A stretch of 64,000 nt of DNA from Thermodesulfovibrionales bacterium (GCA_035622735.1 DASPUT010000077.1:2645-66644), one strand, 5' to 3'; shown: positions 5,099 through 57,576, numbered from the stretch's first letter. Numbers and translations: made by a program. Notes: generated by a model from the sequence alone, not told the origin.

Positions 5099-5884
5099 AT
5101 GAAAAAAATATCGGTAGTGATGATGGCAGTGATGGCTATTTCAGTTTTGCTGGCGGTTCCGGCGTTCAGCGCGCCAAAGCTTATTGTGAAGGCCGCGAAC
5201 GGGACTGATGATGTTTTCCACGTGGAGGATACGGGGAATGTCGGAATCTTCTCTGGAATTACAAACCCGGCTGCGCCGACAGCACCGTTGAACATCGTCT
5301 CGGCAGGTTCGGGAAATCTCTTCACGATAACAACCACATCCCCGGCAGGAGGTGCAGGGTTTGAATTTAAAGTGCCGGGCGGCGGTGATTGGCTCTTCAG
5401 GGCAACTCAGGATAATGGGTTCAAGATAAGGGATGGGGCAAATGCGAAGGATGCGGTCTACGTTCAATTTAATACCGGCCATGTCGGGATCGGCACACTT
5501 ACTCCGGCCCATCCTCTCGTAATTTGTGCATTTCCGGGCTCGGCGACGTGCGTTTCTAATGACGGTACCACAACATGGACAGCTTCGAGCCGTGAATACA
5601 AGGAGAATATTCAGTCTTTACCCGCTGACAAGGCGATTGACGCCCTGAAGGACCTCAATCCTGTTACCTTCAGATATAGAGACATCCCCGACCAGCCGCA
5701 CGTCGGATTTATCGCAGAGGATGTTCCTGATTTGGTTGCGTCGAAAGACAGAAAGGCACTGAGTCCGATGGACATCGTGGCTGTCCTGACGCGAGTGGTT
5801 CAGGAGCAGAACAAGACTATCGAGGCGCTCTCGGCGAAGATCGACAGGCTCGAGAAAGCTTCAATGGACGGAAGAAAGTTTTAA
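5099..5884 (+). CDS. secreted protein with C-terminal peptidase S74 (tail-fibre/endosialidase intramolecular chaperone) domain
   Basis: AAGGAGGAGAGG lies before the ATG. Signal peptide MKKISVVMMAVMAISVLLAVPAFSA. C-terminal block SSREYKENIQSL...LNPVTFRYRD...HVGFIAEDVPDLV...MDIVAVLTRVVQEQNKTIEALSAKIDRLE matches the self-cleaving Ser-Lys chaperone domain. Confidence 0.7.
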   Translation: MKKISVVMMAVMAISVLLAVPAFSAPKLIVKAANGTDDVFHVEDTGNVGIFSGITNPAAPTAPLNIVSAGSGNLFTITTTSPAGGAGFEFKVPGGGDWLFRATQDNGFKIRDGANAKDAVYVQFNTGHVGIGTLTPAHPLVICAFPGSATCVSNDGTTTWTASSREYKENIQSLPADKAIDALKDLNPVTFRYRDIPDQPHVGFIAEDVPDLVASKDRKALSPMDIVAVLTRVVQEQNKTIEALSAKIDRLEKASMDGRKF

Positions 5885-41877: not shown

Positions 41878-42282
41878 TTACGATCCCATTTCGTCAAGGT
41901 GTTTACAGAACTTCAGGTAGGCGGAATCCTTTGCTGCTATCTTTACACCTATTAGACCATTCTTAATAGTCCTAATGACTTTCCCTTTCAGGTTTGATGT
42001 CTGCTTACCAGCTAGTTCGATATTAATGTCGAGTATTGTGTCAGGGTCAAATTGATGTTCTGTTTTTATGGACAAGCCGTTCATCGAAATATCTTGGCTT
42101 ATACCCTCATACGTTATGCCGTTTGCCGTGAACCGTATACCACAACTCACCTCATACCTTCTATAAAGTCTGTCGTCCTTTCTTCTCTCTGCCGAGCGAA
42201 GCAGGAAAAGTACAACGCTTGCACAAATTAAGGCGGTTGCCACACCTAAAGAAATCAGACTTGTCAGTGTTGCTTTAAACAT
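41878..42282 (-). CDS. membrane-anchored PilZ domain protein
   Basis: N-terminal helix LISLGVATALICASVVLFLL. PilZ motifs RLYRR (RxxxR) and DISMNG (DxSxxG). Confidence 0.8.
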   Translation of the reverse strand: MFKATLTSLISLGVATALICASVVLFLLRSAERRKDDRLYRRYEVSCGIRFTANGITYEGISQDISMNGLSIKTEHQFDPDTILDINIELAGKQTSNLKGKVIRTIKNGLIGVKIAAKDSAYLKFCKHLDEMGS

Positions 42283-42364
42283 ATTCCTTCCTTGGTCGCT
42301 TGTATTTTATTGTCATATTCTATGAAACAGTTTCTCGTTCACATTTTTAGAAACGCAAATCAAT

Positions 42365-42703
42365 TTAAGCGCCCATTTGTTTTTCGTATGATTTTGCGAT
42401 GCTCTCAATGAATCCCCTGATTCTTGCCCTCTGATCGTTATGCAGGTCAATAAACACAAGGCCTGCGCCAATGCCAGGCTGACAATTCTTTACCTGCCCT
42501 TTGACTGTTATCTTCTCTTCTCCTATCGGAAGGGTAATCTCGACAACGTCATCCTCGTCAAAATAGCGCGCCCCCGAAACATAAATACCGGCTTCACTTA
42601 TATCATAACTTGTACAGCAATGTATGCCGTCTAGCAAAATTTCCTCTCGAAAAGGAAATCTCCGGCAGTTTCTGCGTTCTGTTTTTTCTTCGTCGTCCTT
42701 CAT
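42365..42703 (-). CDS. PilZ domain protein
   Basis: RRNCRR (RxxxR) and DISEAG (DxSxxG). 112 aa, single domain. Confidence 0.8.
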   Translation of the reverse strand: MKDDEEKTERRNCRRFPFREEILLDGIHCCTSYDISEAGIYVSGARYFDEDDVVEITLPIGEEKITVKGQVKNCQPGIGAGLVFIDLHNDQRARIRGFIESIAKSYEKQMGA

Positions 42704-42710
42704 AAATTTC

Positions 42711-43094
42711 TCACTGATTATGAAAATGTCTGAGAGAAGAGGTTAACTGCTCATAGAGCAACGGTTGTTTCGTTGAATCTATTTCCTCCTTGAATTGAAT
42801 CCCCACATAATAAATATCCCTAATCTTTCTGCTATATGTGCTGATGCCGTCCACAGAAGCACTCTTCATCGATCCGTCGACCGCTATGAAATAAACATCG
42901 ATTGATAGATCTTTGCCCTCCCTCAGTGGCTGGTCAGAATAAACACCGATTCCCGCCAAAGACATGTCGGCAACCATTGCCTGAATTGAATAGGCGTCGC
43001 GCCCGCCAGCAATATTGAGTGTCGCGGTTGCCGGCAATGCAATTCTTTTATGACTGCGTATCCTATACATATGATGATTGCCGTTTATTCTCAA
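42711..43094 (-). CDS. PilZ domain protein
   Basis: RSHKR (RxxxR) and DMSLAG (DxSxxG). There is a 7-nt gap to the downstream PilZ gene. Confidence 0.75.
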   Translation of the reverse strand: MRINGNHHMYRIRSHKRIALPATATLNIAGGRDAYSIQAMVADMSLAGIGVYSDQPLREGKDLSIDVYFIAVDGSMKSASVDGISTYSRKIRDIYYVGIQFKEEIDSTKQPLLYEQLTSSLRHFHNQ

Positions 43095-43124
43095 TATGCT
43101 TTCCGGAACGCATGTTCGACAATT

Positions 43125-43553
43125 CTATCCCGTCCTCTTACTCATGTCCTTCACCTCGACTGGAGTGAAATCATCATTCATGCCTATTGAAGACGACAAA
43201 CTCTGCTCAAGTGAAGCGCGGTTAAGCAGATACCTGATAAAATGAACATAATTAGAATCCCTCTCAATGAGCTCGACTCCCATCCCAATTTTTTCTTTCT
43301 TCCCTGTCCTAAGCGCGGTCCCGGCGGGGCTTGCACAGGCTCTTTTGACCTTAACGCTAACCTTTGAAATCGCGCCATACGGTAGATAAAGTGCCATGTC
43401 GAGAATAGTATCCGGCGCCTGCGGATGGTCAGTTCTGATGAACATTCCGTGTAGCGAAAAATTGCTCGAAGTCCCAGTATAAATCATCCCGTTTGACACG
43501 AACTCAGTGTCACAGTACTTAATAAAGCGCTTATGCCTTCTTCTGTTAACCAC
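43125..43553 (-). CDS. PilZ domain protein (possibly the 3' part of an amber-interrupted gene)
   Basis: RRRHKR and NFSLHG motifs. The only available start is a GTG at 43553 with no Shine-Dalgarno sequence. The same frame continues upstream through one TAG (43569-43571) into a 54-codon ORF. Confidence 0.7.
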   Translation of the reverse strand: MVNRRRHKRFIKYCDTEFVSNGMIYTGTSSNFSLHGMFIRTDHPQAPDTILDMALYLPYGAISKVSVKVKRACASPAGTALRTGKKEKIGMGVELIERDSNYVHFIRYLLNRASLEQSLSSSIGMNDDFTPVEVKDMSKRTG

Positions 43554-43733: not shown

Positions 43734-44263
43734 ATTGTTCCTCCTTCTTAGAGGTATAGTAGCAAGAGTTATTCCACGATTAATTATTTCCGCAATGCCC
43801 GAAAAAAAACCTAAATAACAAGATGTTACTATTAATTGTTATCGAGAGGATGACTCCTCTTTGACCGAAAATCATACGGGGTGACAAAAAAACGTACAGA
43901 TTCCAATTAACTGAATTCAGAAAGACGTTTCTGAAGGATAAGAGGTTAAAATGAAGACCATGAGTAGAACTTATGAGCCTCTTTGAGCCCATCCGCTGGC
44001 CCCGGGTGACAGACACCAAGGGGGCCGGGTGATTGAGAGTTCGTCTCGCAACCAGTTGCCAAGACTTCTTCTGCTACAAGTTCCACTTTTCAGAGTCTCG
44101 GCTTTTCATATTTCTGTTTCTTCTGTTCAGGGTGTTCTCTCTTTATCCTTGTTCACCTTAACCGAAAGATTAAGAAAACGCATGGCTGCGATAGCTTCAG
44201 TGATCGAATAATCGAGAACCAGACGTCGTGGGGCCCAATTTACAAGCAGATATGTATATAAAA

Positions 44264-44292
44264 TTGACACTTGGCTAGAGAGGTGCTATAAG
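44264..44292 (+). promoter_or_regulatory. near-consensus sigma70-type promoter (TTGACA-17 nt-TATAAG)
   Basis: TTGACA at 44264-44269, exactly 17 nt of spacer, and TATAAG at 44287-44292. The predicted transcription start is near 44300, about 175 nt upstream of the ATG at 44475. Confidence 0.55.
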
Positions 44293-44311
44293 GGAATTGA
44301 GGGGAGAGATT

Positions 44312-44392
44312 CCCGATAAAGCTAAACCCTCCGTGAGAAGGGGACGGAAAGCGTGCGGGTCTTAGAGAAGATGGCCGAGCTGCCGAAGGATT
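44312..44392 (+). promoter_or_regulatory. candidate c-di-GMP-I (GEMM-I class) riboswitch aptamer
   Basis: By-eye alignment to the Vc2/RF01051 core. Elements found: AAAGCUAAACC (44318-44328); a hairpin capped by the GNRA loop GUGA (44329-44340); GGGACGGAAAGCG (44341-44353, compare GGGACGCAAAGCC); a second helix CGG-GUCUU/AGAG/AAGAU-GG-CCG (44356-44377); and 3' AGCUGCCGAAGG (44378-44389). Confidence 0.6.
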
Positions 44393-44474
44393 CTTTACAG
44401 ACTGGTAGATGAGGTCACTTTAATAAGGGGCAAGCAAGACTAAGGCGTCCCCTTCCTATAAAGAGGAGGGCAAT

Positions 44475-46784
44475 ATGCGATATGTTTGCGGACTCCCGGT
44501 TATTGTTATATTCGGTTTTTTATTAGTTCTCCCTTTTCCCCAAAATGCTCAAGCCTCGCTCCAAAACGGTGTTCCTTTCGATACATATCTGGATTCAATG
44601 ACTTATGCCAACATCGACATCTACGTACCTGCAGGTGCCACAAAACTCACTGTCACTATCAGTAATGGAAGCGGCAATCTGGATCTCTATTTGAAATACG
44701 GCAGTCCCGCTCAAGGCAACACTGTGGGGCAATTGAATGCTAACGCCGATGTCGTGTCGGCAGGTCCGACAGCGGATGAAACGATTGTGCTGACGCCTGA
44801 GACCACCCCTCCGCTGCACGAGGGGGTATGGTATGTTGCGACCTTGAACCTTAACAACACGAGAACTTATTTTGCATTAACCGCCACTGTGGAAGTTCCG
44901 ATGGGCCAAGCGATTCCAATTCCAACAGAACAGGAAATGTGGGGTTACTCGCCTGTCGAAAAATGCATCGCAAATTATGATGCTGCAAGTTCCAAGCCGA
45001 TATGCATTCAAACCTCCGTCCCGGGTGGTAAGACAATTACGGTCAAAGTTGAGGCCCAGCGATTTGCGGCACCGGTTGATATTTACTTCGGAATCTGTGC
45101 CAATCCGATCGACTCACGAAATATCTACCTCCTGTCATCAGATAACCATCTGCGACCGCTTGCCGAGGGTTATGTCCCTTGGCGCACAAACGTGGCGGGG
45201 CCTTTGAATGAAAATGTTTTGGGGGACATTCCCCTTTCGAGCCTTCCGCCAGGGAGGTATGACCTATATCTGGGGATAGCACTTTTGGGTCGAACAGACG
45301 TTTATTATATCTGGGCCACTTCTTATGTTATAAAGCCCGGGCCTGAGTATGTTGCAGATGGTGATGCCGCTTTTTTCGACGGCACGGTAGTCGTCCCAAA
45401 ATCGAAAATTCAATTTCAGGGTCAGCTTTACGATGAAACGGCTGAAGTACCCGCTAATACTTTAGTTGGTGTCATCAAGTCGGACAAGATCTACCTTTAT
45501 CATACGGCACTTGGTACCGTCACTCTTTCCGATGAGACGACGCGTAAGGCCATCGGACAATTTGTGATGGATTACTTTGAGAACACCTCATCGACAGCCA
45601 CTGCGGGACTCAACACCATTGCGAGTGGCGACCAACTCCTGACCTACGCAAATCCCGCGGATCTCAAGACCGGCGTCAAACTCACGCGACTCGCCGAAAA
45701 AGAGGTTGAAGTTTTGAACGAGTTCCACAGGTGGGCTGCGATAGAGGGGACAGAGGGGAGCGGACCATATTTCCTACCGCCACCGGCTCGTTATCTCGAT
45801 AACAACCTAATTCGTCTCTTTGGCAATTATCTGAAGTTATCGGAGTCCTGGTTCAATGCGAGCAACGAAAACAAGGAAACCGTGTATTTCACTTCAGATT
45901 CTCTGACGATTGAGACGTTCGGGGCAACATGGAGACCACTGCCCTATTTCCTTGCGGGTGCTACCGACATTGCCAATATGGTTGTTTCGTTGCTCTCTGG
46001 GCGATCGAATCCCGTAACGAACATCCCCATTGATGGCGAGGCCATGGCTATCCAGAAAGACCAAAAGCTTGTCGAAGCCCTTTGGAATATTGATCTTGCC
46101 GCCATGCTGTTCGAAGGGATAAAACTCTTCGCCGCCACATTCGATGTGAGCGAGACGCTTGAACCTGTAGTGAATCTGTGTTGCAACACGGCTATGGCGA
46201 TTACTCATGCCTGGATCAATGGTCAGGCGGGAACGCCGCAAGCCAAAGCCAGCGTTAAGAAGGCCATTGAAGATCTGGCCAACGACATTCCGACGGCATT
46301 GATTAATGTTGGTACCGCGGGAGGAGGCACGCCCTTCTTTACCTTGGTAGACGGCATTGCAACCCTGGATTACATGGTTGAGGATGTTGTTATCCACGAC
46401 CTTGAGGTTACTGGGGGGTCAGCCTACGATGAGGTCTCTATGAAACCGGAAACTTCAAACAACGTTGACCTATTCTCTTTCCCTTGGAGGGTATTTTGGG
46501 GCTGTGACGAGACATCCACCTCGTGCGATCCCGTGCCGAATTATCTCAAGTTTTATACAAATTATGTGTATGATCTCTTTGCCTCTCCCGATATGGCAAA
46601 GCCGGACTGGCACGGCAGTTGGTCTCGGGCTGGCTCAACCCTTACGCTCACGCCAACAGACGGCAAAGATTGCGTTTCATCCTATGTCGGAACACTGATA
46701 TATCCCCATACAATCAAGGGATACTACACCCTCGGACCGAAATGCGCAAACCCGGGAGAGAAACATTACTGGATGGCACAGTAA
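44475..46784 (+). CDS. secreted 769-aa protein with N-terminal PPC (pre-peptidase C-terminal type) domain; remainder unknown
   Basis: AGAGGAGGG lies before the ATG. Signal peptide ...LVLPFPQNAQA. PPC-like block YANIDIYVPAGATKLTVTISNGSGNLDLYLKYGSPA...WYVATLN. No family was recognised for the following ~620 aa. Confidence 0.8.
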   Translation: MRYVCGLPVIVIFGFLLVLPFPQNAQASLQNGVPFDTYLDSMTYANIDIYVPAGATKLTVTISNGSGNLDLYLKYGSPAQGNTVGQLNANADVVSAGPTADETIVLTPETTPPLHEGVWYVATLNLNNTRTYFALTATVEVPMGQAIPIPTEQEMWGYSPVEKCIANYDAASSKPICIQTSVPGGKTITVKVEAQRFAAPVDIYFGICANPIDSRNIYLLSSDNHLRPLAEGYVPWRTNVAGPLNENVLGDIPLSSLPPGRYDLYLGIALLGRTDVYYIWATSYVIKPGPEYVADGDAAFFDGTVVVPKSKIQFQGQLYDETAEVPANTLVGVIKSDKIYLYHTALGTVTLSDETTRKAIGQFVMDYFENTSSTATAGLNTIASGDQLLTYANPADLKTGVKLTRLAEKEVEVLNEFHRWAAIEGTEGSGPYFLPPPARYLDNNLIRLFGNYLKLSESWFNASNENKETVYFTSDSLTIETFGATWRPLPYFLAGATDIANMVVSLLSGRSNPVTNIPIDGEAMAIQKDQKLVEALWNIDLAAMLFEGIKLFAATFDVSETLEPVVNLCCNTAMAITHAWINGQAGTPQAKASVKKAIEDLANDIPTALINVGTAGGGTPFFTLVDGIATLDYMVEDVVIHDLEVTGGSAYDEVSMKPETSNNVDLFSFPWRVFWGCDETSTSCDPVPNYLKFYTNYVYDLFASPDMAKPDWHGSWSRAGSTLTLTPTDGKDCVSSYVGTLIYPHTIKGYYTLGPKCANPGEKHYWMAQ

Positions 46785-47017: not shown

Positions 47018-47380
47018 ATGAAAAAGATTCTATTGGGCATTCTTCTGATGTTGGCTATCCCATGTATGTCCTTTAGCGCCGATTACAGGGTTTTTGGGTG
47101 GGATAGTAGTGTTCAGGAAGTTGACTGCTTAACCTTGGCTGGTTGCATGCTGGCATCCAAACCAGTGAGTTTCAATAACGATACCGGCTTCATTTTGTCA
47201 CTGGATGGTAACCACTGGGAACTGAAAGACAGCAGTGGAGTGGTAATGCAAGGGGATGCCAATCTCTACTACGATCTGCTTGTTCTTTCATCGAGTGATC
47301 AGTCGGGGGATTTGGCAGTCATCAGCTCTGACGGTATCGGAAGGGCAACCACAGGCTTTTTCTTCCAGTTGAGAGATTAA
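47018..47380 (+). CDS. small secreted hypothetical protein
   Basis: GGGGAGGGGAG lies before the ATG. Signal peptide MKKILLGILLMLAIPCMSFSA. No family was recognised. Confidence 0.6.
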   Translation: MKKILLGILLMLAIPCMSFSADYRVFGWDSSVQEVDCLTLAGCMLASKPVSFNNDTGFILSLDGNHWELKDSSGVVMQGDANLYYDLLVLSSSDQSGDLAVISSDGIGRATTGFFFQLRD

Positions 47381-49200: not shown

Positions 49201-49375
49201 TTTTGTTTGGTATGCTGCAGCCGCTGCGGTGATCCTCTGCATTCTCGGACCACTGATACTCCTCAGACATGCCGAGAAGAGTGCGGGGAAGCCGGGGTCC
49301 GCTACCAGAGAGCGTTAGATGGGAAAGATTCTGTCGTGCTCAAGGTCCGGACAAGAGAACGTGCGGGTGGGAGCT

Positions 49376-49837
49376 ATGGTTAATAGGAGAAGACATAAGC
49401 GCTTTATTAAACACTGCGATGTCGAATTTTTCTCAGGAGGGATGGGACATGCCGGAACTTCGAGTAATTTTTCATTGCAGGGAATGTTCATAAGAACAGA
49501 TCATCCTCAGGCGCCGGGCACGGTTCTCGACATTTTGCTCTATCTTCCCTATGGCGAGATTTCAAAATTGCGGGGTAAGGTGAAGAGGGCATGGACAAAC
49601 CCCGCTGGGGCGGGGGTGAGAAGACCCAAGAATGGGAAAATCGGGATGGGGGTTGAGGTCATAGAGAAAGATGCCAGTTATCTTCACTTCATCAGGTATT
49701 TGCTTAACTGGTCTCACCTCTCCGGAATATTCGTCGCGCGACAAGAGAAACGTGGAGAAATCTACGCGACAGCTGATCGGACATACCGCGAATGCGGCCT
49801 TGAGGAAACCGTTGAAAAAGTTCCGGATGACTCATAG
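49376..49837 (+). CDS. PilZ domain protein, paralogue of 43125-43553
   Basis: GGGTGGGAG lies before ATG 49376. MVNRRRHKRFIKHCDVEFF...SSNFSLQGMFIRTDHPQAPGTVLD...IGMGVEVIEKDASYLHFIRYLLN is near-collinear with the 43125 protein. Confidence 0.8.
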   Translation: MVNRRRHKRFIKHCDVEFFSGGMGHAGTSSNFSLQGMFIRTDHPQAPGTVLDILLYLPYGEISKLRGKVKRAWTNPAGAGVRRPKNGKIGMGVEVIEKDASYLHFIRYLLNWSHLSGIFVARQEKRGEIYATADRTYRECGLEETVEKVPDDS

Positions 49838-49849
49838 GATGAGCGGAAG

Positions 49850-50266
49850 ATGGAACCGGTAAAAGTGGTCATCAGATATGCCCATGGTGGGCTGATAAAA
49901 GGCTTCACGAATGATTTTTTTCCCAACAAGCCTTTCTTTCACGTTCGCCCGATTGAGTCTGGATCTATCGATAAAGGTGTCGAGATTCACATGAAGGAAC
50001 TTAAGGCAGTATTTTTCGTAAAGGATTTTAAGGGTAACCGCGAATACCATGAAAGGAAACACTTTGCCGACGGCCAGCAGGCTAACGGGCGGCGGGTTGA
50101 AGTGACATTTTTGGATGGTGAGGTGATGGTGGGATCAACATTGGGTTATGATCCCAGTCGTCCTGGATTCTTCGTTACTCCCGCCGATACGGATGTCAAT
50201 AATATACGGGTGTTTGTGGTCTCGACAGCCGTGAGCAAGTTTCGGTTTGTTCAAACCACTTGTTGA
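49850..50266 (+). CDS. hypothetical beta-rich protein co-oriented with PilZ paralogue
   Basis: It starts 12 nt after the PilZ stop. Conserved-looking blocks are LKAVFFVKDFKGN, VEVTFLDGEVMVGSTLGYDPSRPGFFVTPAD and NNIRVFVVSTAV. I cannot name the family. Confidence 0.6.
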   Translation: MEPVKVVIRYAHGGLIKGFTNDFFPNKPFFHVRPIESGSIDKGVEIHMKELKAVFFVKDFKGNREYHERKHFADGQQANGRRVEVTFLDGEVMVGSTLGYDPSRPGFFVTPADTDVNNIRVFVVSTAVSKFRFVQTTC

Positions 50267-52550: not shown

Positions 52551-53792
52551 ATGAACGGGGGCAAAATAAAGAGTTTTCTGGCGACACTCCTGGCAGCTCT
52601 TTCTCTATCAATTGTTATAGGCACGGCGAGGGATTTGTCAGCGGCATATGTATTAACAGACCAGGAGCTTGATGACCTCCTCGCTCCTATCGCTCTCTAC
52701 CCGGACCCGTTGCTAGCCCAGATGTTGCCAGCCTCGACATACCCGTCGGACGTTGTTGATGCGGCAGGTTGGCTGAGAAGCGGTGGCGACCCATCATTTG
52801 TTGATGAGCAAAATTGGGATGAGAACGTCGGGGCCATTGCCCACTACCCACAGGTTCTCTATATGATGGCTGATAATATCGATTGGACTGCTAGCGTTGG
52901 TGATGCTTTTCTGAACCAGCCGGAAGATGTGACCAATTCGATTCAGCGTCTGAGGTGGCAAGCGCAGACCCTCGGGAATCTTGTGAGTAACGATCAACAG
53001 GCTGTTACTACGGAGGGAGGCGATATTCAGATCATTCCAGCCCAACCTCAATATATTTATGTGCCTCAGTATGATCCATCAATCGTGTACGTTCAAGCAC
53101 GGATCCCCGTCCTGCCTCCTTACGTTACATTTCCCCTGGTGTTTACGATCGGAAGCTGGCTGGACCTTGACTTTGACTGGGGTCACCACCACGTCTTCTA
53201 CCATGGGTGGAATCGCCCTGGGTGGGTCAATCATGCAAGGCCCTATGTGCACATAACGAATGTTTACGTTCAAAGGAGCAGACCTTACATCAATCAGACA
53301 TGGAGGCACAATCCATCGCACGGCGATCCAGACAGGTATTGGACGTCGAGACCGGGTGGAGCTCCAAGCGGCAGCTATCCGCACGGCTCTGAAGTCAGGG
53401 GAAGGAGTTCGACACCCACGGGACCTGCGGCTGGCCCGTTCGTCCCCAACGCCAATACCAGGCAATTTAGCGATAGGGGAAAAGAAAGCCTCGGCACTGC
53501 CGTTCCACGTCCGACACCTCAAGCTCCTGCTGCCGTTCCACGTCCAGCACCTCAAGCTCCTGCTGCCGTTCCACGTCCGGCGCCGCAAGCTCCCGCTGCC
53601 GTACCACATCCGGCGCCGCAAGCTCCTGCTGTCTTCGGAGGCTACAGGGGACTCAATGAAGTCAAAACGCAGAGTATGCGTGGCCAAGCGAGCCGCCAGA
53701 GCAATGTGGGAGGATCCACCGCGCCAGCTTCGGTGAACAAGGTCGGCGCTCCTTCGAGCCGCGGCGAACCCGGTAGCGGCGGACACCGGTAA
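52551..53792 (+). CDS. DUF3300 family secreted protein with proline-rich repeat tail
   Basis: GAAGGAG lies before the ATG, followed by a signal peptide. LTDQELDDLLAPIALYPDPLLAQMLPASTYPSDVVDAAGWL is the DUF3300 hallmark. Confidence 0.8.
   Translation: MNGGKIKSFLATLLAALSLSIVIGTARDLSAAYVLTDQELDDLLAPIALYPDPLLAQMLPASTYPSDVVDAAGWLRSGGDPSFVDEQNWDENVGAIAHYPQVLYMMADNIDWTASVGDAFLNQPEDVTNSIQRLRWQAQTLGNLVSNDQQAVTTEGGDIQIIPAQPQYIYVPQYDPSIVYVQARIPVLPPYVTFPLVFTIGSWLDLDFDWGHHHVFYHGWNRPGWVNHARPYVHITNVYVQRSRPYINQTWRHNPSHGDPDRYWTSRPGGAPSGSYPHGSEVRGRSSTPTGPAAGPFVPNANTRQFSDRGKESLGTAVPRPTPQAPAAVPRPAPQAPAAVPRPAPQAPAAVPHPAPQAPAVFGGYRGLNEVKTQSMRGQASRQSNVGGSTAPASVNKVGAPSSRGEPGSGGHR
53499..53630. repeat. four tandem 33-bp coding repeats (AVPRPAPQAPA units)
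   Basis: GCCGTTCCACGTCC(G/A)(A/G)C(A/G)CC(T/G)CAAGCTCC(T/C)GCT repeats head-to-tail at 53499, 53532, 53565 and 53598. Confidence 0.85.
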
Positions 53793-53862
53793 CAGGATCG
53801 GATTAGTTAAACAACTTCTGACTGCTAAGGGCACGATTGAGTACGAAGAAAGGAAGGACGTC

Positions 53863-54831
53863 ATGAAGACAGTTTCAGCAGACTCCACATCTCATTCATC
53901 GCAGAAGATTGCTTTAGTAACATCCATTTTGGCTTTAGCGATGGCGGTCTTATGGAATGTGACGGGGACCGGTGCAGCGTCCCAACGATATTTTGCCACA
54001 CCAGAAGACGCTGTCAAAGCACTCGCAGAGGCCGTGAAGTCAAACGACACGGCCGCGCTGGATCAGATTTTCGGGCCTGCCAGAAAAGAGGTTCTCTCTA
54101 ATGACGAGGTGCAGCACGCTGCTGCCCTTGAGGCATTTACGAAACACCTGCAAGAAAAAACTAATCTTGTGAAAGAGAATGATTCGACGGTGATGCTTCA
54201 CGTCGGTAATGAAGACTGGCCCTTTCCCATTCCGATTGTGAAAAGGGATAACCAGTGGTTCTTTGATACTGAGGCAGGCAAGGAAGAGATCCTAAACCGT
54301 CGTATCGGAGAAAACGAACTTACCGCCATGCTCGTTTGTCGCACGTACGTGAAGGCTCAGCGAGAGTATGCCCTGAAGGATTGGGAGGGCACCGGTGTAC
54401 TGGCATATGCACAGAAGCTGCGAAGTGACCCTGGTAGGAAGAACGGTCTTTTTTGGAGAACGAAGGAGGGAGAAGAGGTGAGTCCCTTCGGGGAACTCGT
54501 CGCTCAGGCGTGGAAGGAAGGATATAAGAAGAAAAAGGCCGCTTTCAGGGAAGAGGCAACACCATTTCACGGATATTATTTTAGAATCTTGACTGAACAA
54601 GGTAAAAATGCCCCGGGGGGAAAATACAATTACGTTATCAATGGCAACATGGTTGCAGGTTTTGCCCTGATCGCATTTCCCTCGGACTGGAAGAAATCGG
54701 GTGTTATGACATTCGTTGTCAATCAGCAAGGGAAAGTCTATCAGAAGAACCTTGGACCAGAGACCACCAAGATTGCTCAACAGATGAAATCATATAATCC
54801 TGATGGAAACTGGACCCTTGTTAAGGAATAA
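53863..54831 (+). CDS. DUF2950 family secreted protein
   Basis: GAAAGGAAGGA lies before the ATG. WPFPIPIVKRDNQWFFDTEAGKEEILNRRIGENEL...GYYFRILTEQGKNAPGG...GFALIAFPSDWKKSGVMTFVVNQQGKVYQKNLG matches the DUF2950 pattern. This family is the usual partner of DUF3300. Confidence 0.8.
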   Translation: MKTVSADSTSHSSQKIALVTSILALAMAVLWNVTGTGAASQRYFATPEDAVKALAEAVKSNDTAALDQIFGPARKEVLSNDEVQHAAALEAFTKHLQEKTNLVKENDSTVMLHVGNEDWPFPIPIVKRDNQWFFDTEAGKEEILNRRIGENELTAMLVCRTYVKAQREYALKDWEGTGVLAYAQKLRSDPGRKNGLFWRTKEGEEVSPFGELVAQAWKEGYKKKKAAFREEATPFHGYYFRILTEQGKNAPGGKYNYVINGNMVAGFALIAFPSDWKKSGVMTFVVNQQGKVYQKNLGPETTKIAQQMKSYNPDGNWTLVKE

Positions 54832-56577: not shown

Positions 56578-57576
56578 TTACGCTTTATGTTTTATCCTTT
56601 TATGTTCGTGCATCATCTCATCCGCGTGCGAAATCAATTCGTCAACGGAACACGGCTTTTCCGGGTTGTAAAGAGATACGCCGAGACTCAATGACAGGTT
56701 GTAGTTCTTATTTCTCGAAGCATTCTGATTTTTCATGTTCTTCTCCAGGCGGGCGATAATCTTCTCTATGTTATCTCCGGTAATTCCTACCGGAATTACG
56801 ACAAACTCATCACCACCTATCCGGGCAACGATGTCTGACTCCCGATAGGTTGTTTTGAGGACCTTAGCGGTCTCGACTAGTGCCTCATCGCCCTCGTGAT
56901 GGCCTGACCTATCATTAATCGATTTCAGATGATCCAAATCGGCATAGAGCATGTATATCCCTTTCTTTTGCCGTTTGGCGAGCTTGAGAAACTCCTCGGC
57001 GAGCGTGAAGAACCCCCGCCGGTTGTACAGGCCGGTGAGTTCATCAGTGATTGTCAGGAGACGGAGTCTCTCTTGTAATTTGACGTGGTTCACCCTATGC
57101 AGTATTTCCTTCATGGTAAAGGGCTTCTTTATGAAGTCCGATGCCCCGGCATCTATGGCTCTGTCGTACGAGAAATCGTCAATGAAACCTGTCATGATAA
57201 TGGTCGCCATGTCGGGTCTGAACTTTCTCGCTTTTTCCGTGAGTTCAAAACCATTCATGCCGGGCATTGCGACGTCTGCCAGCATAATGTGGAAATGGCC
57301 TTTCGTTAAACATTCAATGGCGGCCTCGGAACTCGTGCACGTTTCGCATCGGTAACCATGAGATTCGAACATCTCTCGGAGTATCGGCAACATTGCTTCA
57401 TCGTTATCAACAATGATTATTGCGGTTCTCTCGTCCAACTTACCCTCCGTCTTCGGGTTCATCATCCGGGTCCGGGAGGCATGCGCCAAAGCTGCTTTTC
57501 GCGACAATGCATCCGCAAATAGGATAATACTACTCTCGATTAAAATCAAGAACGAAATTGGGTTCGAACATTTCAA
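56578..57576 (-). CDS. response regulator-diguanylate cyclase (REC-GGDEF)
   Basis: REC domain: IIIVDNDEAMLPILREMF...MLADVAMPGMNGFEL. GGDEF domain: DELTGLYNRRGF...RIGGDEFVVI, with an RESD I-site five residues upstream. The true start may be the internal MMNPK (about 57465). Confidence 0.88.
   Translation of the reverse strand: MKCSNPISFLILIESSIILFADALSRKAALAHASRTRMMNPKTEGKLDERTAIIIVDNDEAMLPILREMFESHGYRCETCTSSEAAIECLTKGHFHIMLADVAMPGMNGFELTEKARKFRPDMATIIMTGFIDDFSYDRAIDAGASDFIKKPFTMKEILHRVNHVKLQERLRLLTITDELTGLYNRRGFFTLAEEFLKLAKRQKKGIYMLYADLDHLKSINDRSGHHEGDEALVETAKVLKTTYRESDIVARIGGDEFVVIPVGITGDNIEKIIARLEKNMKNQNASRNKNYNLSLSLGVSLYNPEKPCSVDELISHADEMMHEHKRIKHKA

Follow-up and report, generated by a model that had tools for sequence, protein, structure and literature searches.

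In GEMM RNAs, the class that includes the cyclic di-GMP (c-di-GMP)-I riboswitches, the first hairpin is made of a 2-bp stem, a 3-nt internal loop, a 6-bp stem and a GNRA tetraloop, and the AAA linker between the two hairpins is near-invariant (320 of 322 examples); members with a GYRA loop are devoid of the tetraloop receptor, and often carry a bulge near the base of the second hairpin, P2 (PMC1950547). The contacts of the Vc2 aptamer with c-di-GMP involve G20, A47 and C92 (PMC4744006, PMC6140456). G20 recognises one guanine of the ligand (PMC6140456, PMC4744006), and C92 forms a Watson-Crick pair with the second one (PMC6140456). An A at position 20 is the mark of the class recognising 3',3'-cyclic GMP-AMP (3',3'-cGAMP), as A14 does in Gs1761 (PMC6140456). 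A literature search returned nothing on c-di-GMP riboswitches in Nitrospirae, nor on the A47G change. Here we describe a GEMM-I aptamer placed upstream of a gene for a 769-amino-acid (aa) secreted protein, in a DNA stretch of 64,000 nucleotides from a Thermodesulfovibrionales bacterium (GCA_035622735.1, DASPUT010000077.1:2645-66644). This whole stretch is called the window below, and positions are counted from its first nucleotide.

The complete 64-kb window was scanned with the Rfam 15 covariance models at the gathering threshold, and region 44200-44520 was scanned permissively. A single Rfam match was found in the window, at 44312-44388 on the + strand, with family RF03167 (c-di-GMP-I-GGC), scoring 62.2 bits for a gathering score of 59 (E 2.8e-12). 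It was full-length (model positions 1-80), and an identical match was returned by the permissive scan. A second family of the same clan (CL00126) exceeded its own gathering score at this place and was masked by clan competition; this is presumably the parent family, RF01051. The ATG at 44475 lies on the aptamer strand, 87 nt beyond the aptamer 3' end, and a promoter-like site precedes the aptamer, which corresponds to a 5' cis-regulatory position. Upon nearest-neighbour folding of the nascent RNA ending at 44388, both hairpins were predicted, the first with p ~0.7 and P2 with p ~0.68. The original prediction, made by eye, had proposed a GEMM-I aptamer in this 5' leader, with a GNRA-type loop, an ACGG-AAA-GC junction and a second, bulged hairpin. 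The match above the gathering score bears this out, and the covariance model placed all of these elements as described. Judging from its sequence, segment 44312-44388 is very probably a c-di-GMP-class aptamer, and we conclude that the element is an ordinary further example of GEMM-I, a known class, and that its ligand-contact nucleotides are the standard ones.

Mapping of the covariance-model columns onto window coordinates gave the anatomy of the aptamer (Table 1). In the first hairpin, the 2-bp stem pairs C44322-U44323 with G44346-G44347 (C:G and U:G) and is followed by internal loops of 3 nt each, AAA (44324-26) and GAC (44343-45), then by a 6-bp stem (44327-32 with 44337-42), in which 5 of the 6 pairs are standard. 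It is closed by a GUGA loop (44333-36), which is of the GYRA type, and no tetraloop receptor is present in the aptamer. P2 has a lower stem (44350-52 with 44379-81), a UG bulge (44354-55) and an upper stem (44356-61 with 44370-77) interrupted by a GG bulge (44373-74). A candidate interhelical pair would join C44345, in the GAC loop, to G44374, in the P2 bulge, both expected nucleotides being present. After P2 come G44382 and C44383, then the 3' strand of P1. By its first-hairpin layout, its AAA linker and its GYRA loop without receptor, the window aptamer fits the published GEMM architecture. A terminator-like site was also noted on the - strand, at 44342-44327; it consists of the first aptamer hairpin read in reverse complement, plus the T-rich complement of AAAGCUAAA. 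As no - strand gene ends upstream of it, this site most likely arises simply from the sequence of the aptamer.

The nature of the ligand was considered next to the columns equivalent to G20, A47 and C92. These read G44321, A44348 and C44383, which is the canonical c-di-GMP triad. In the original prediction an A had been placed at the G20 equivalent, with a possible selectivity for 3',3'-cGAMP. This resulted from a register error of one nucleotide: with the register used, the 2-bp stem would have to be GC/GC, for which the 3' side (GACGGAAA) offers no match, and the G20 column is occupied by G44321. Two class assignments were tried and rejected. A GEMM-Ib cGAMP riboswitch requires an A at the G20 equivalent, which is G44321 here; and the GGC variants of RF03167 have a conserved G in the A47 column (consensus GACGC-G-AA), whereas the window has A44348 (GACGG-A-AA). 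From the RF03167 consensus, the letters GGC would be those found at positions 20, 47 and 92. That RF03167 came out as the best-scoring model is probably due to the short receptor-less P2 and the 3' GCUGCCGAAG, both shared with the window aptamer.

A ligand other than c-di-GMP, either 3',3'-cGAMP or the ligand of the GGC-variant class, would account for the top Rfam family being RF03167 and not RF01051, and for G44382, which precedes the C92 equivalent in agreement with the RF03167 consensus UGC. We nevertheless regard it as highly improbable, since the G20 column is a G, whereas A20 defines the cGAMP class (PMC6140456), and since the column of the RF03167 consensus G is an A, giving the canonical AAA linker. 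The surroundings point the same way: five PilZ genes lie around the locus, and the GGDEF cyclase encoded nearby carries a GHxxGD motif. The Asp of GHxxGD is associated with diguanylate cyclases specific for GTP, as opposed to the hybrid-promiscuous GGDEF proteins that make cGAMP. This gene context had been pointed out initially, and all six genes were located in the window (Table 1); the neighbourhood favours c-di-GMP as the ligand. The case calls for some caution in annotation, as a top Rfam label (GGC) without its defining nucleotide, if followed by itself, would give a wrong idea of the likely ligand.

Downstream of the aptamer, no terminator-like site was found on the + strand of the leader, 44389-44474 included, and no U-tract. 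Intrinsic termination, and with it a transcription-terminating GEMM platform, was rejected on this ground. The predicted minimum free energy (MFE) structure of the whole leader was not the aptamer fold; it was an irregular hairpin of ~49 bp in which 44393-44470 is folded back on 44327-44388. It contains a perfect 10-bp helix between GAAGGGGACG (44337-46) and CGUCCCCUUC (44446-55), which the repeat finder also reported (inverted repeat I2, 100% over 10 nt). Perfect complementarity over 10 nt was reached in only 7 of 2000 dinucleotide shuffles. Moreover, the duplex between the aptamer and the platform (44393-44470) had an energy of -59.1 kcal/mol, compared to -35.2 +/- 4.5 for shuffled platforms, none of which was as good (0 of 500, z ~-5.3). 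At the base of the long hairpin, CCCUCC (44327-32) is perfectly paired with GGAGGG (44465-70), so that the Shine-Dalgarno sequence is buried; this helix alone is worth -10.3 kcal/mol. Such complementarity to nearly the whole aptamer is, besides the patchy distribution among orthologues described below, the sole unusual trait of the element.

When the platform was folded separately, a local hairpin formed by CCUUCCU and AGGAGGG (7 bp, 6-nt loop, -9.6 kcal/mol) was predicted with p ~0.9. Another hairpin, AAGGGG/CCCCUU (44425-30 with 44449-54), had been put forward at first as a possible platform feature devoid of U-tract. It can form (-6.3 to -8.1 kcal/mol) and indeed has no U-tract, but it is not the main feature of the platform: because the stronger Shine-Dalgarno-sequestering hairpin competes with it, it is a minor species of the predicted ensemble (p ~0.002). 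The dominant features are the 10-bp anti-aptamer helix, the CCCUCC:Shine-Dalgarno pairing and the local CCUUCCU:AGGAGGG hairpin. A length scan predicted that P2 is invaded once ~18 nt past the aptamer have been made, and that the first hairpin is lost once 44454 has been made. The MFE of the free leader was -65.9 kcal/mol, versus -38.8 kcal/mol when the aptamer was constrained. We also observed a 9-nt inverted repeat, 44392-44400 / 44456-44464 (UCUUUACAG / CUAUAAAGA), complementary at 8 of 9 positions. It joins the stretch directly following the aptamer to the loop of the hairpin that sequesters the Shine-Dalgarno, and could give a competing or pseudoknot-like contact in the aptamer-folded state.

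Four full-length homologues of the 769-aa protein were found in a set of 5.8 billion proteins; a metagenome scan added three loci, all from lineages already represented, and a scan of genome contigs with the protein gave no relatives. Given these small numbers and the redundancy of the metagenome loci, a covariation analysis of the orthologous leaders was impossible. The leaders were however compared one by one. Three of them, from loci whose protein is 47-49% identical (L004:218-287, L085:1270-1339 and L087:355-424), contain one and the same diverged GEMM-I-like element. It scored 28.6 bits, below the gathering score, and its alignment was better than 1000 of 1000 shuffles. The G20 and A47 columns of this element hold G and A, and its C92 column holds a U; the AAA linker is replaced by AGA and the GAC loop by GGC, and the 6-bp stem shows a compensatory change from C:G to A:U. 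The existence of this homologous copy speaks for the aptamer identity of the window element. The copy itself may be in decay, or may represent an aptamer whose specificity has changed. No anti-aptamer design was detected in the L085 clade (-45.8 versus -44.0 +/- 4.4 kcal/mol). In L001:3925-4000 and L086:1425-1500 (protein 69-72% identical), a 13/15-nt match (CCAGATAAAGCCAAA) to the aptamer 5' end is present at an equal distance from the -10; its significance is marginal (41 of 1000 shuffles, p ~0.04), and it is possibly an aptamer remnant. No aptamer was detectable in L002 (3925-4000) or L003. The closest orthologues (L001, L086 and L002, 65-72% protein identity) are without aptamer. The distribution of the riboswitch in the gene family is therefore patchy, with the sole high-scoring copy in the window. 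In L003, the group II intron D1-D4 model RF02001 matched weakly at 5446-5539 (-), with 28.2 bits for a gathering score of 32, near toxin-antitoxin-like genes.

The gene and its leader are also found in three further assemblies, identical to the window save for one base: in L090 (1-146, aligned with window 44334-44480), U44354 is missing from the P2 bulge, at a place where the Rfam consensus is one nucleotide shorter. Natural variation that the RNA tolerates could explain the missing base, and so could a fault in the assembly. The erosion seen in the orthologous leaders (28.6 bits in L004/L085/L087, a possible 13/15-nt remnant in L001/L086, nothing in L002/L003) raises the question of whether the window copy, too, is in decay and no longer functions, as a relic left from an ancestral riboswitch, as its two non-canonical pairs and the availability of a far more stable alternative fold might suggest. 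We consider this very unlikely, for the score exceeds a curated gathering threshold, the nucleotides at all mappable ligand and tertiary contacts are intact, and the highly non-random complementarity in the platform suggests that function has been maintained.

We then estimated how accessible the Shine-Dalgarno sequence would be in each fold. Its predicted opening cost was higher in the free ensemble than with the aptamer locked, 8.6 versus 6.0, 10.7 versus 9.5 and 16.7 versus 11.1 kcal/mol depending on the footprint (9.1 instead of 9.5 kcal/mol when the aptamer was simply barred from pairing), and none of the footprints tested, nor of the temperatures between 25 and 60 C, reversed this order. 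The Shine-Dalgarno itself is strong, with -12.5 kcal/mol for pairing to a generic 16S tail, and CCCUCC matches it at 6 of 6 positions, compared to 5 of 6 for its own partner in the aptamer. The aptamer, the complementarities and their statistics are direct results of the programs used; ligand binding, the transcription start, and the direction and size of the regulation are inferred.

The mechanism we propose is the following. Transcription would proceed from the extended -10 promoter at 44264-44292, and the aptamer would act in cis on the 769-aa gene without any intrinsic terminator, the 175-nt leader adopting one or the other of two folds that exclude each other. In the absence of ligand, 44393-44470 would zip onto the aptamer to form the irregular hairpin of ~49 bp, with the pairing of 44337-46 to 44446-55 as its core, and the freed CCCUCC (44327-32), at the hairpin base, would pair with the GGAGGG of the Shine-Dalgarno. 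Once c-di-GMP is bound, the aptamer would be locked, the downstream arm would fold on itself, and the Shine-Dalgarno would be held only by the weaker local hairpin (-9.6 kcal/mol), which ribosome pairing (-12.5 kcal/mol) could plausibly outcompete. The net effect would be more translation in the presence of c-di-GMP, that is, an ON switch. This direction is favoured because opening of the Shine-Dalgarno is costlier without the aptamer lock, because the Shine-Dalgarno is strong, and because CCCUCC fits it better than it fits the aptamer. We place translational ON control itself at, or a shade under, an even chance, and the complete explanation, a canonical c-di-GMP-I aptamer exerting translational ON control by exclusive folds, is in our view evenly balanced.

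Several points weigh against this explanation. Regarding the aptamer, one mismatch is present in the 6-bp stem of the first hairpin (C44331.A44338) and another in P2 (G44353.A44378), and the Rfam scan displays only the best family per clan, which conceals the score of RF01051 itself. Regarding the platform, the long hairpin exceeds the aptamer fold in stability by ~27 kcal/mol, so that the switch would have to act co-transcriptionally. Both predicted states have the Shine-Dalgarno paired, and the contrast between ON and OFF therefore rests on 1.2-5.6 kcal/mol, in a nearest-neighbour model that takes no account of tertiary structure, of ligand energy or of kinetics. The platform finds no support in comparison, the L085-clade copy, which is the only other one that looks intact, being without anti-aptamer design and the four assemblies of the window's own lineage differing by a single base. 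Lastly, the trio formed by GAAGGGGACG, CGUCCCCUUCCU and AGGAGGG also fits a classic OFF design.

In such a translational OFF switch, built on the same c-di-GMP-I aptamer, the unliganded GAAGGGGACG (44337-46) would capture the anti-Shine-Dalgarno CGUCCCCUUC (44446-55) and leave the Shine-Dalgarno exposed; the ligand would free the anti-Shine-Dalgarno segment, and the CCUUCCU:AGGAGGG hairpin would then block initiation. The three elements come in the textbook order, anti-anti-Shine-Dalgarno (44337-46), anti-Shine-Dalgarno (44446-57) and Shine-Dalgarno, no mismatch interrupts the 10-bp helix (-18.2 kcal/mol), and a well-formed local sequestor is predicted with the aptamer folded (7 bp, 6-nt loop, -9.6 kcal/mol, p ~0.9). 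Vc2 is moreover termed an off-switch in bioRxiv 10.1101/617340. Formation of the 10-bp helix, though, puts the freed CCCUCC just beside the Shine-Dalgarno, with which it pairs perfectly and which it suits better than its aptamer partner, and in the unliganded ensemble the structures with a free Shine-Dalgarno are 8.6 kcal/mol worse. Besides, it is less usual in biology for an adhesin-like, secreted protein to be repressed when c-di-GMP is high. We therefore find the OFF switch unlikely, while keeping it in consideration.

Since both predicted folds mask the Shine-Dalgarno, and since the anti-aptamer spans nearly the whole aptamer, far beyond what masking needs, we also considered that the ligand, by deciding co-transcriptionally whether the aptamer or the ~49-bp hairpin forms, might govern something other than Shine-Dalgarno access. 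Cleavage of the long duplex by an RNase III-type enzyme, its decay, and Rho-dependent termination are candidate outputs, as is a two-input gate, where a second signal (temperature, a small RNA or an RNA-binding protein) would open CCUUCCU:AGGAGGG. Elements resembling a Shine-Dalgarno (GAGGGG / GAGAGGG) and an anti-Shine-Dalgarno (CCCUCUCC / CCCUCC) do exist ahead of the Shine-Dalgarno in the aptamer-less leaders of L001 and L002, but their pairing is not the predicted MFE. The window duplex is irregular, with 10 bp as its longest perfect run, and a nuclease, a Rho site or a second factor is without direct evidence. Altogether, an output of this kind seems to us quite unlikely, and translational ON control by c-di-GMP remains the favoured explanation.

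As for the promoter, TTGACA and TATAAG (44287-92) are separated by a spacer of 17 nt, and the TG at 44284-85 makes the latter an extended -10. The site had been correctly quoted at the outset, except that this TG was not mentioned, and so had the leader of ~175 nt without open reading frame (ORF): no ORF of at least 60 aa was listed for ~44300-44474. Transcription would start near 44299-44300. Our promoter consensus scan did not return the 44264-44292 site, because its last -10 base is a G and the scan demands a T at this position. In the alignment, a promoter-like TTGACA-17-TGnTAnAAn is found at the equivalent place before four homologous genes (L001-L004).

The 769-aa protein starts with a Sec-type signal peptide, recognised by eye, and its M1 is invariant across five family members. 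It has one Pfam domain, of the PPC type, at aa 49-121, and no catalytic domain was detected by Pfam or profile search. In a profile search, its N-terminal modules recurred, often more than once per protein, in extracellular proteins of large size containing domains of the Ig-like/ASH, Big, fn3, InlB B-repeat, beta-helix or trypsin kind. Nothing useful came from a PDB profile search or from NCBIfam, and the AlphaFold model (predicted local distance difference test score, pLDDT, 37.8) was too poor for fold comparison. The next gene, at 47018, is preceded by a 233-nt gap and has its own promoter-like site, so that the 769-aa gene is probably monocistronic. The FtsZ encoded in the window is 81-83% identical to those of Thermodesulfovibrionales and "Nitrospiraceae" metagenome-assembled genomes, which places the host, on sequence grounds, among the uncultured Nitrospirota (Thermodesulfovibrionales) and not among relatives of Geobacter.

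Three other observations were made in the neighbourhood. A small ORF, seen by eye, starts near 43735 (-) behind a strong ribosome-binding site (AAGAAGGAGG), and its product resembles a short membrane peptide. A DUF6982 gene (49850-50266, +), from an uncharacterised family, directly follows the fifth PilZ gene. Finally, a DUF3300 + DUF2950 gene pair, also from uncharacterised families, lies at 52551-54831 (+) in this c-di-GMP-rich neighbourhood.

Table 1. Position of the riboswitch features and of the genes discussed in the text (window coordinates).
Feature	Position	Strand	Basis or remark
Four single-domain PilZ genes in tandem	41878-43553	-	Divergent from the riboswitch gene across a ~900-nt non-coding gap
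-35 hexamer, TTGACA	44264-44269	+	Read from the sequence; aligned with TTGACA/TTGACG before homologous genes in L001-L003
Extended -10, TGcTATAAG	44284-44292	+	Read from the sequence; aligned with TGATAAAAG (L001), TGATAGAAG (L002), TGATATAAT (L004)
c-di-GMP-I (GEMM-I) aptamer, probable	44312-44388	+	Rfam covariance model, 62.2 bits, E 2.8e-12
P1	44312, 44314, 44315 with 44388, 44385, 44384	+	Covariance-model columns
G44321, unpaired, Vc2 G20 equivalent	44321	+	Covariance-model columns
First hairpin	44322-44347	+	Covariance-model columns; agrees with the GEMM P1 description in PMC1950547
AAA linker; A44348 is the Vc2 A47 equivalent	44348-44350	+	Covariance-model columns
Second hairpin, P2	44350-44381	+	Covariance-model columns
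C44383, Vc2 C92 equivalent	44383	+	Covariance-model columns
Predicted anti-aptamer arm, complementary to 44333-44388	44393-44459	+	Leader MFE, inverted repeat, duplex energy
Local anti-Shine-Dalgarno, CCUUCCU	44451-44457	+	Predicted 7-bp hairpin with AGGAGGG (44464-70) when the aptamer is folded
Shine-Dalgarno, AGAGGAGGG	44462-44470	+	GGAGGG (44465-70) also pairs with CCCUCC (44327-32)
Regulated gene, 769-aa secreted modular protein	44475-46784	+	Signal peptide, PPC domain, beta-rich and helical regions
Fifth PilZ gene	49319-49837	+	
REC-GGDEF gene	56578-57576	-	Product with GGDEF and GHxxGD motifs

The locus adds a well-supported c-di-GMP-I riboswitch from an uncultured Thermodesulfovibrionales (Nitrospirota), and does not challenge current understanding. 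It connects c-di-GMP signalling with a family of secreted modular proteins that is uncharacterised, and so provides a functional clue for this family. The near full-length anti-aptamer, together with the patchy presence of the aptamer in orthologous leaders, is of modest interest for riboswitch design and turnover.

Compared to RF01051, represented by Vc2 and Vc1, the window aptamer has the same two-hairpin architecture with a GNRA loop, an AAA linker and a bulged P2, the same G20, A47 and C92 equivalents with both the interhelical C and G present, and the same location in the 5' untranslated region (UTR) of a gene for an extracellular protein. It differs in that each of its stems has one non-canonical pair and that its host phylum is Nitrospirota; also, Vc2 has a GAAA loop with a receptor, whereas the window aptamer belongs to the receptor-less subtype with a GYRA loop. 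The published GEMM platform is a terminator competing with the 3' side of P2 only (PMC1950547), unlike the near full-length anti-aptamer found here. With RF03167, its best-scoring model, the window aptamer shares the short receptor-less P2 and the 3' GCUGCCGAAG; the A47 column holds a conserved G in that family and A44348 in the window, which gives the triplet G-A-C of the parent class and not G-G-C. The Geobacter GEMM-Ib RNA Gs1761 has the same fold and belongs to the same clan, with an A at the G20 equivalent (PMC6140456) where the window has G44321. With respect to the genes controlled by Bc2 and Vc1, the protein regulated here is unrelated (a PPC domain plus uncharacterised modules), and its regulation is predicted to be translational, in a direction that we infer. 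The arrangement itself has known counterparts: according to PMC4933901 and PMC4744006, Bc2 precedes a collagen adhesion protein gene in B. thuringiensis and Vc1 precedes gbpA, so that in both cases, as in the window, a c-di-GMP-I aptamer is located in the 5' UTR of a gene of the secreted or surface binding type.

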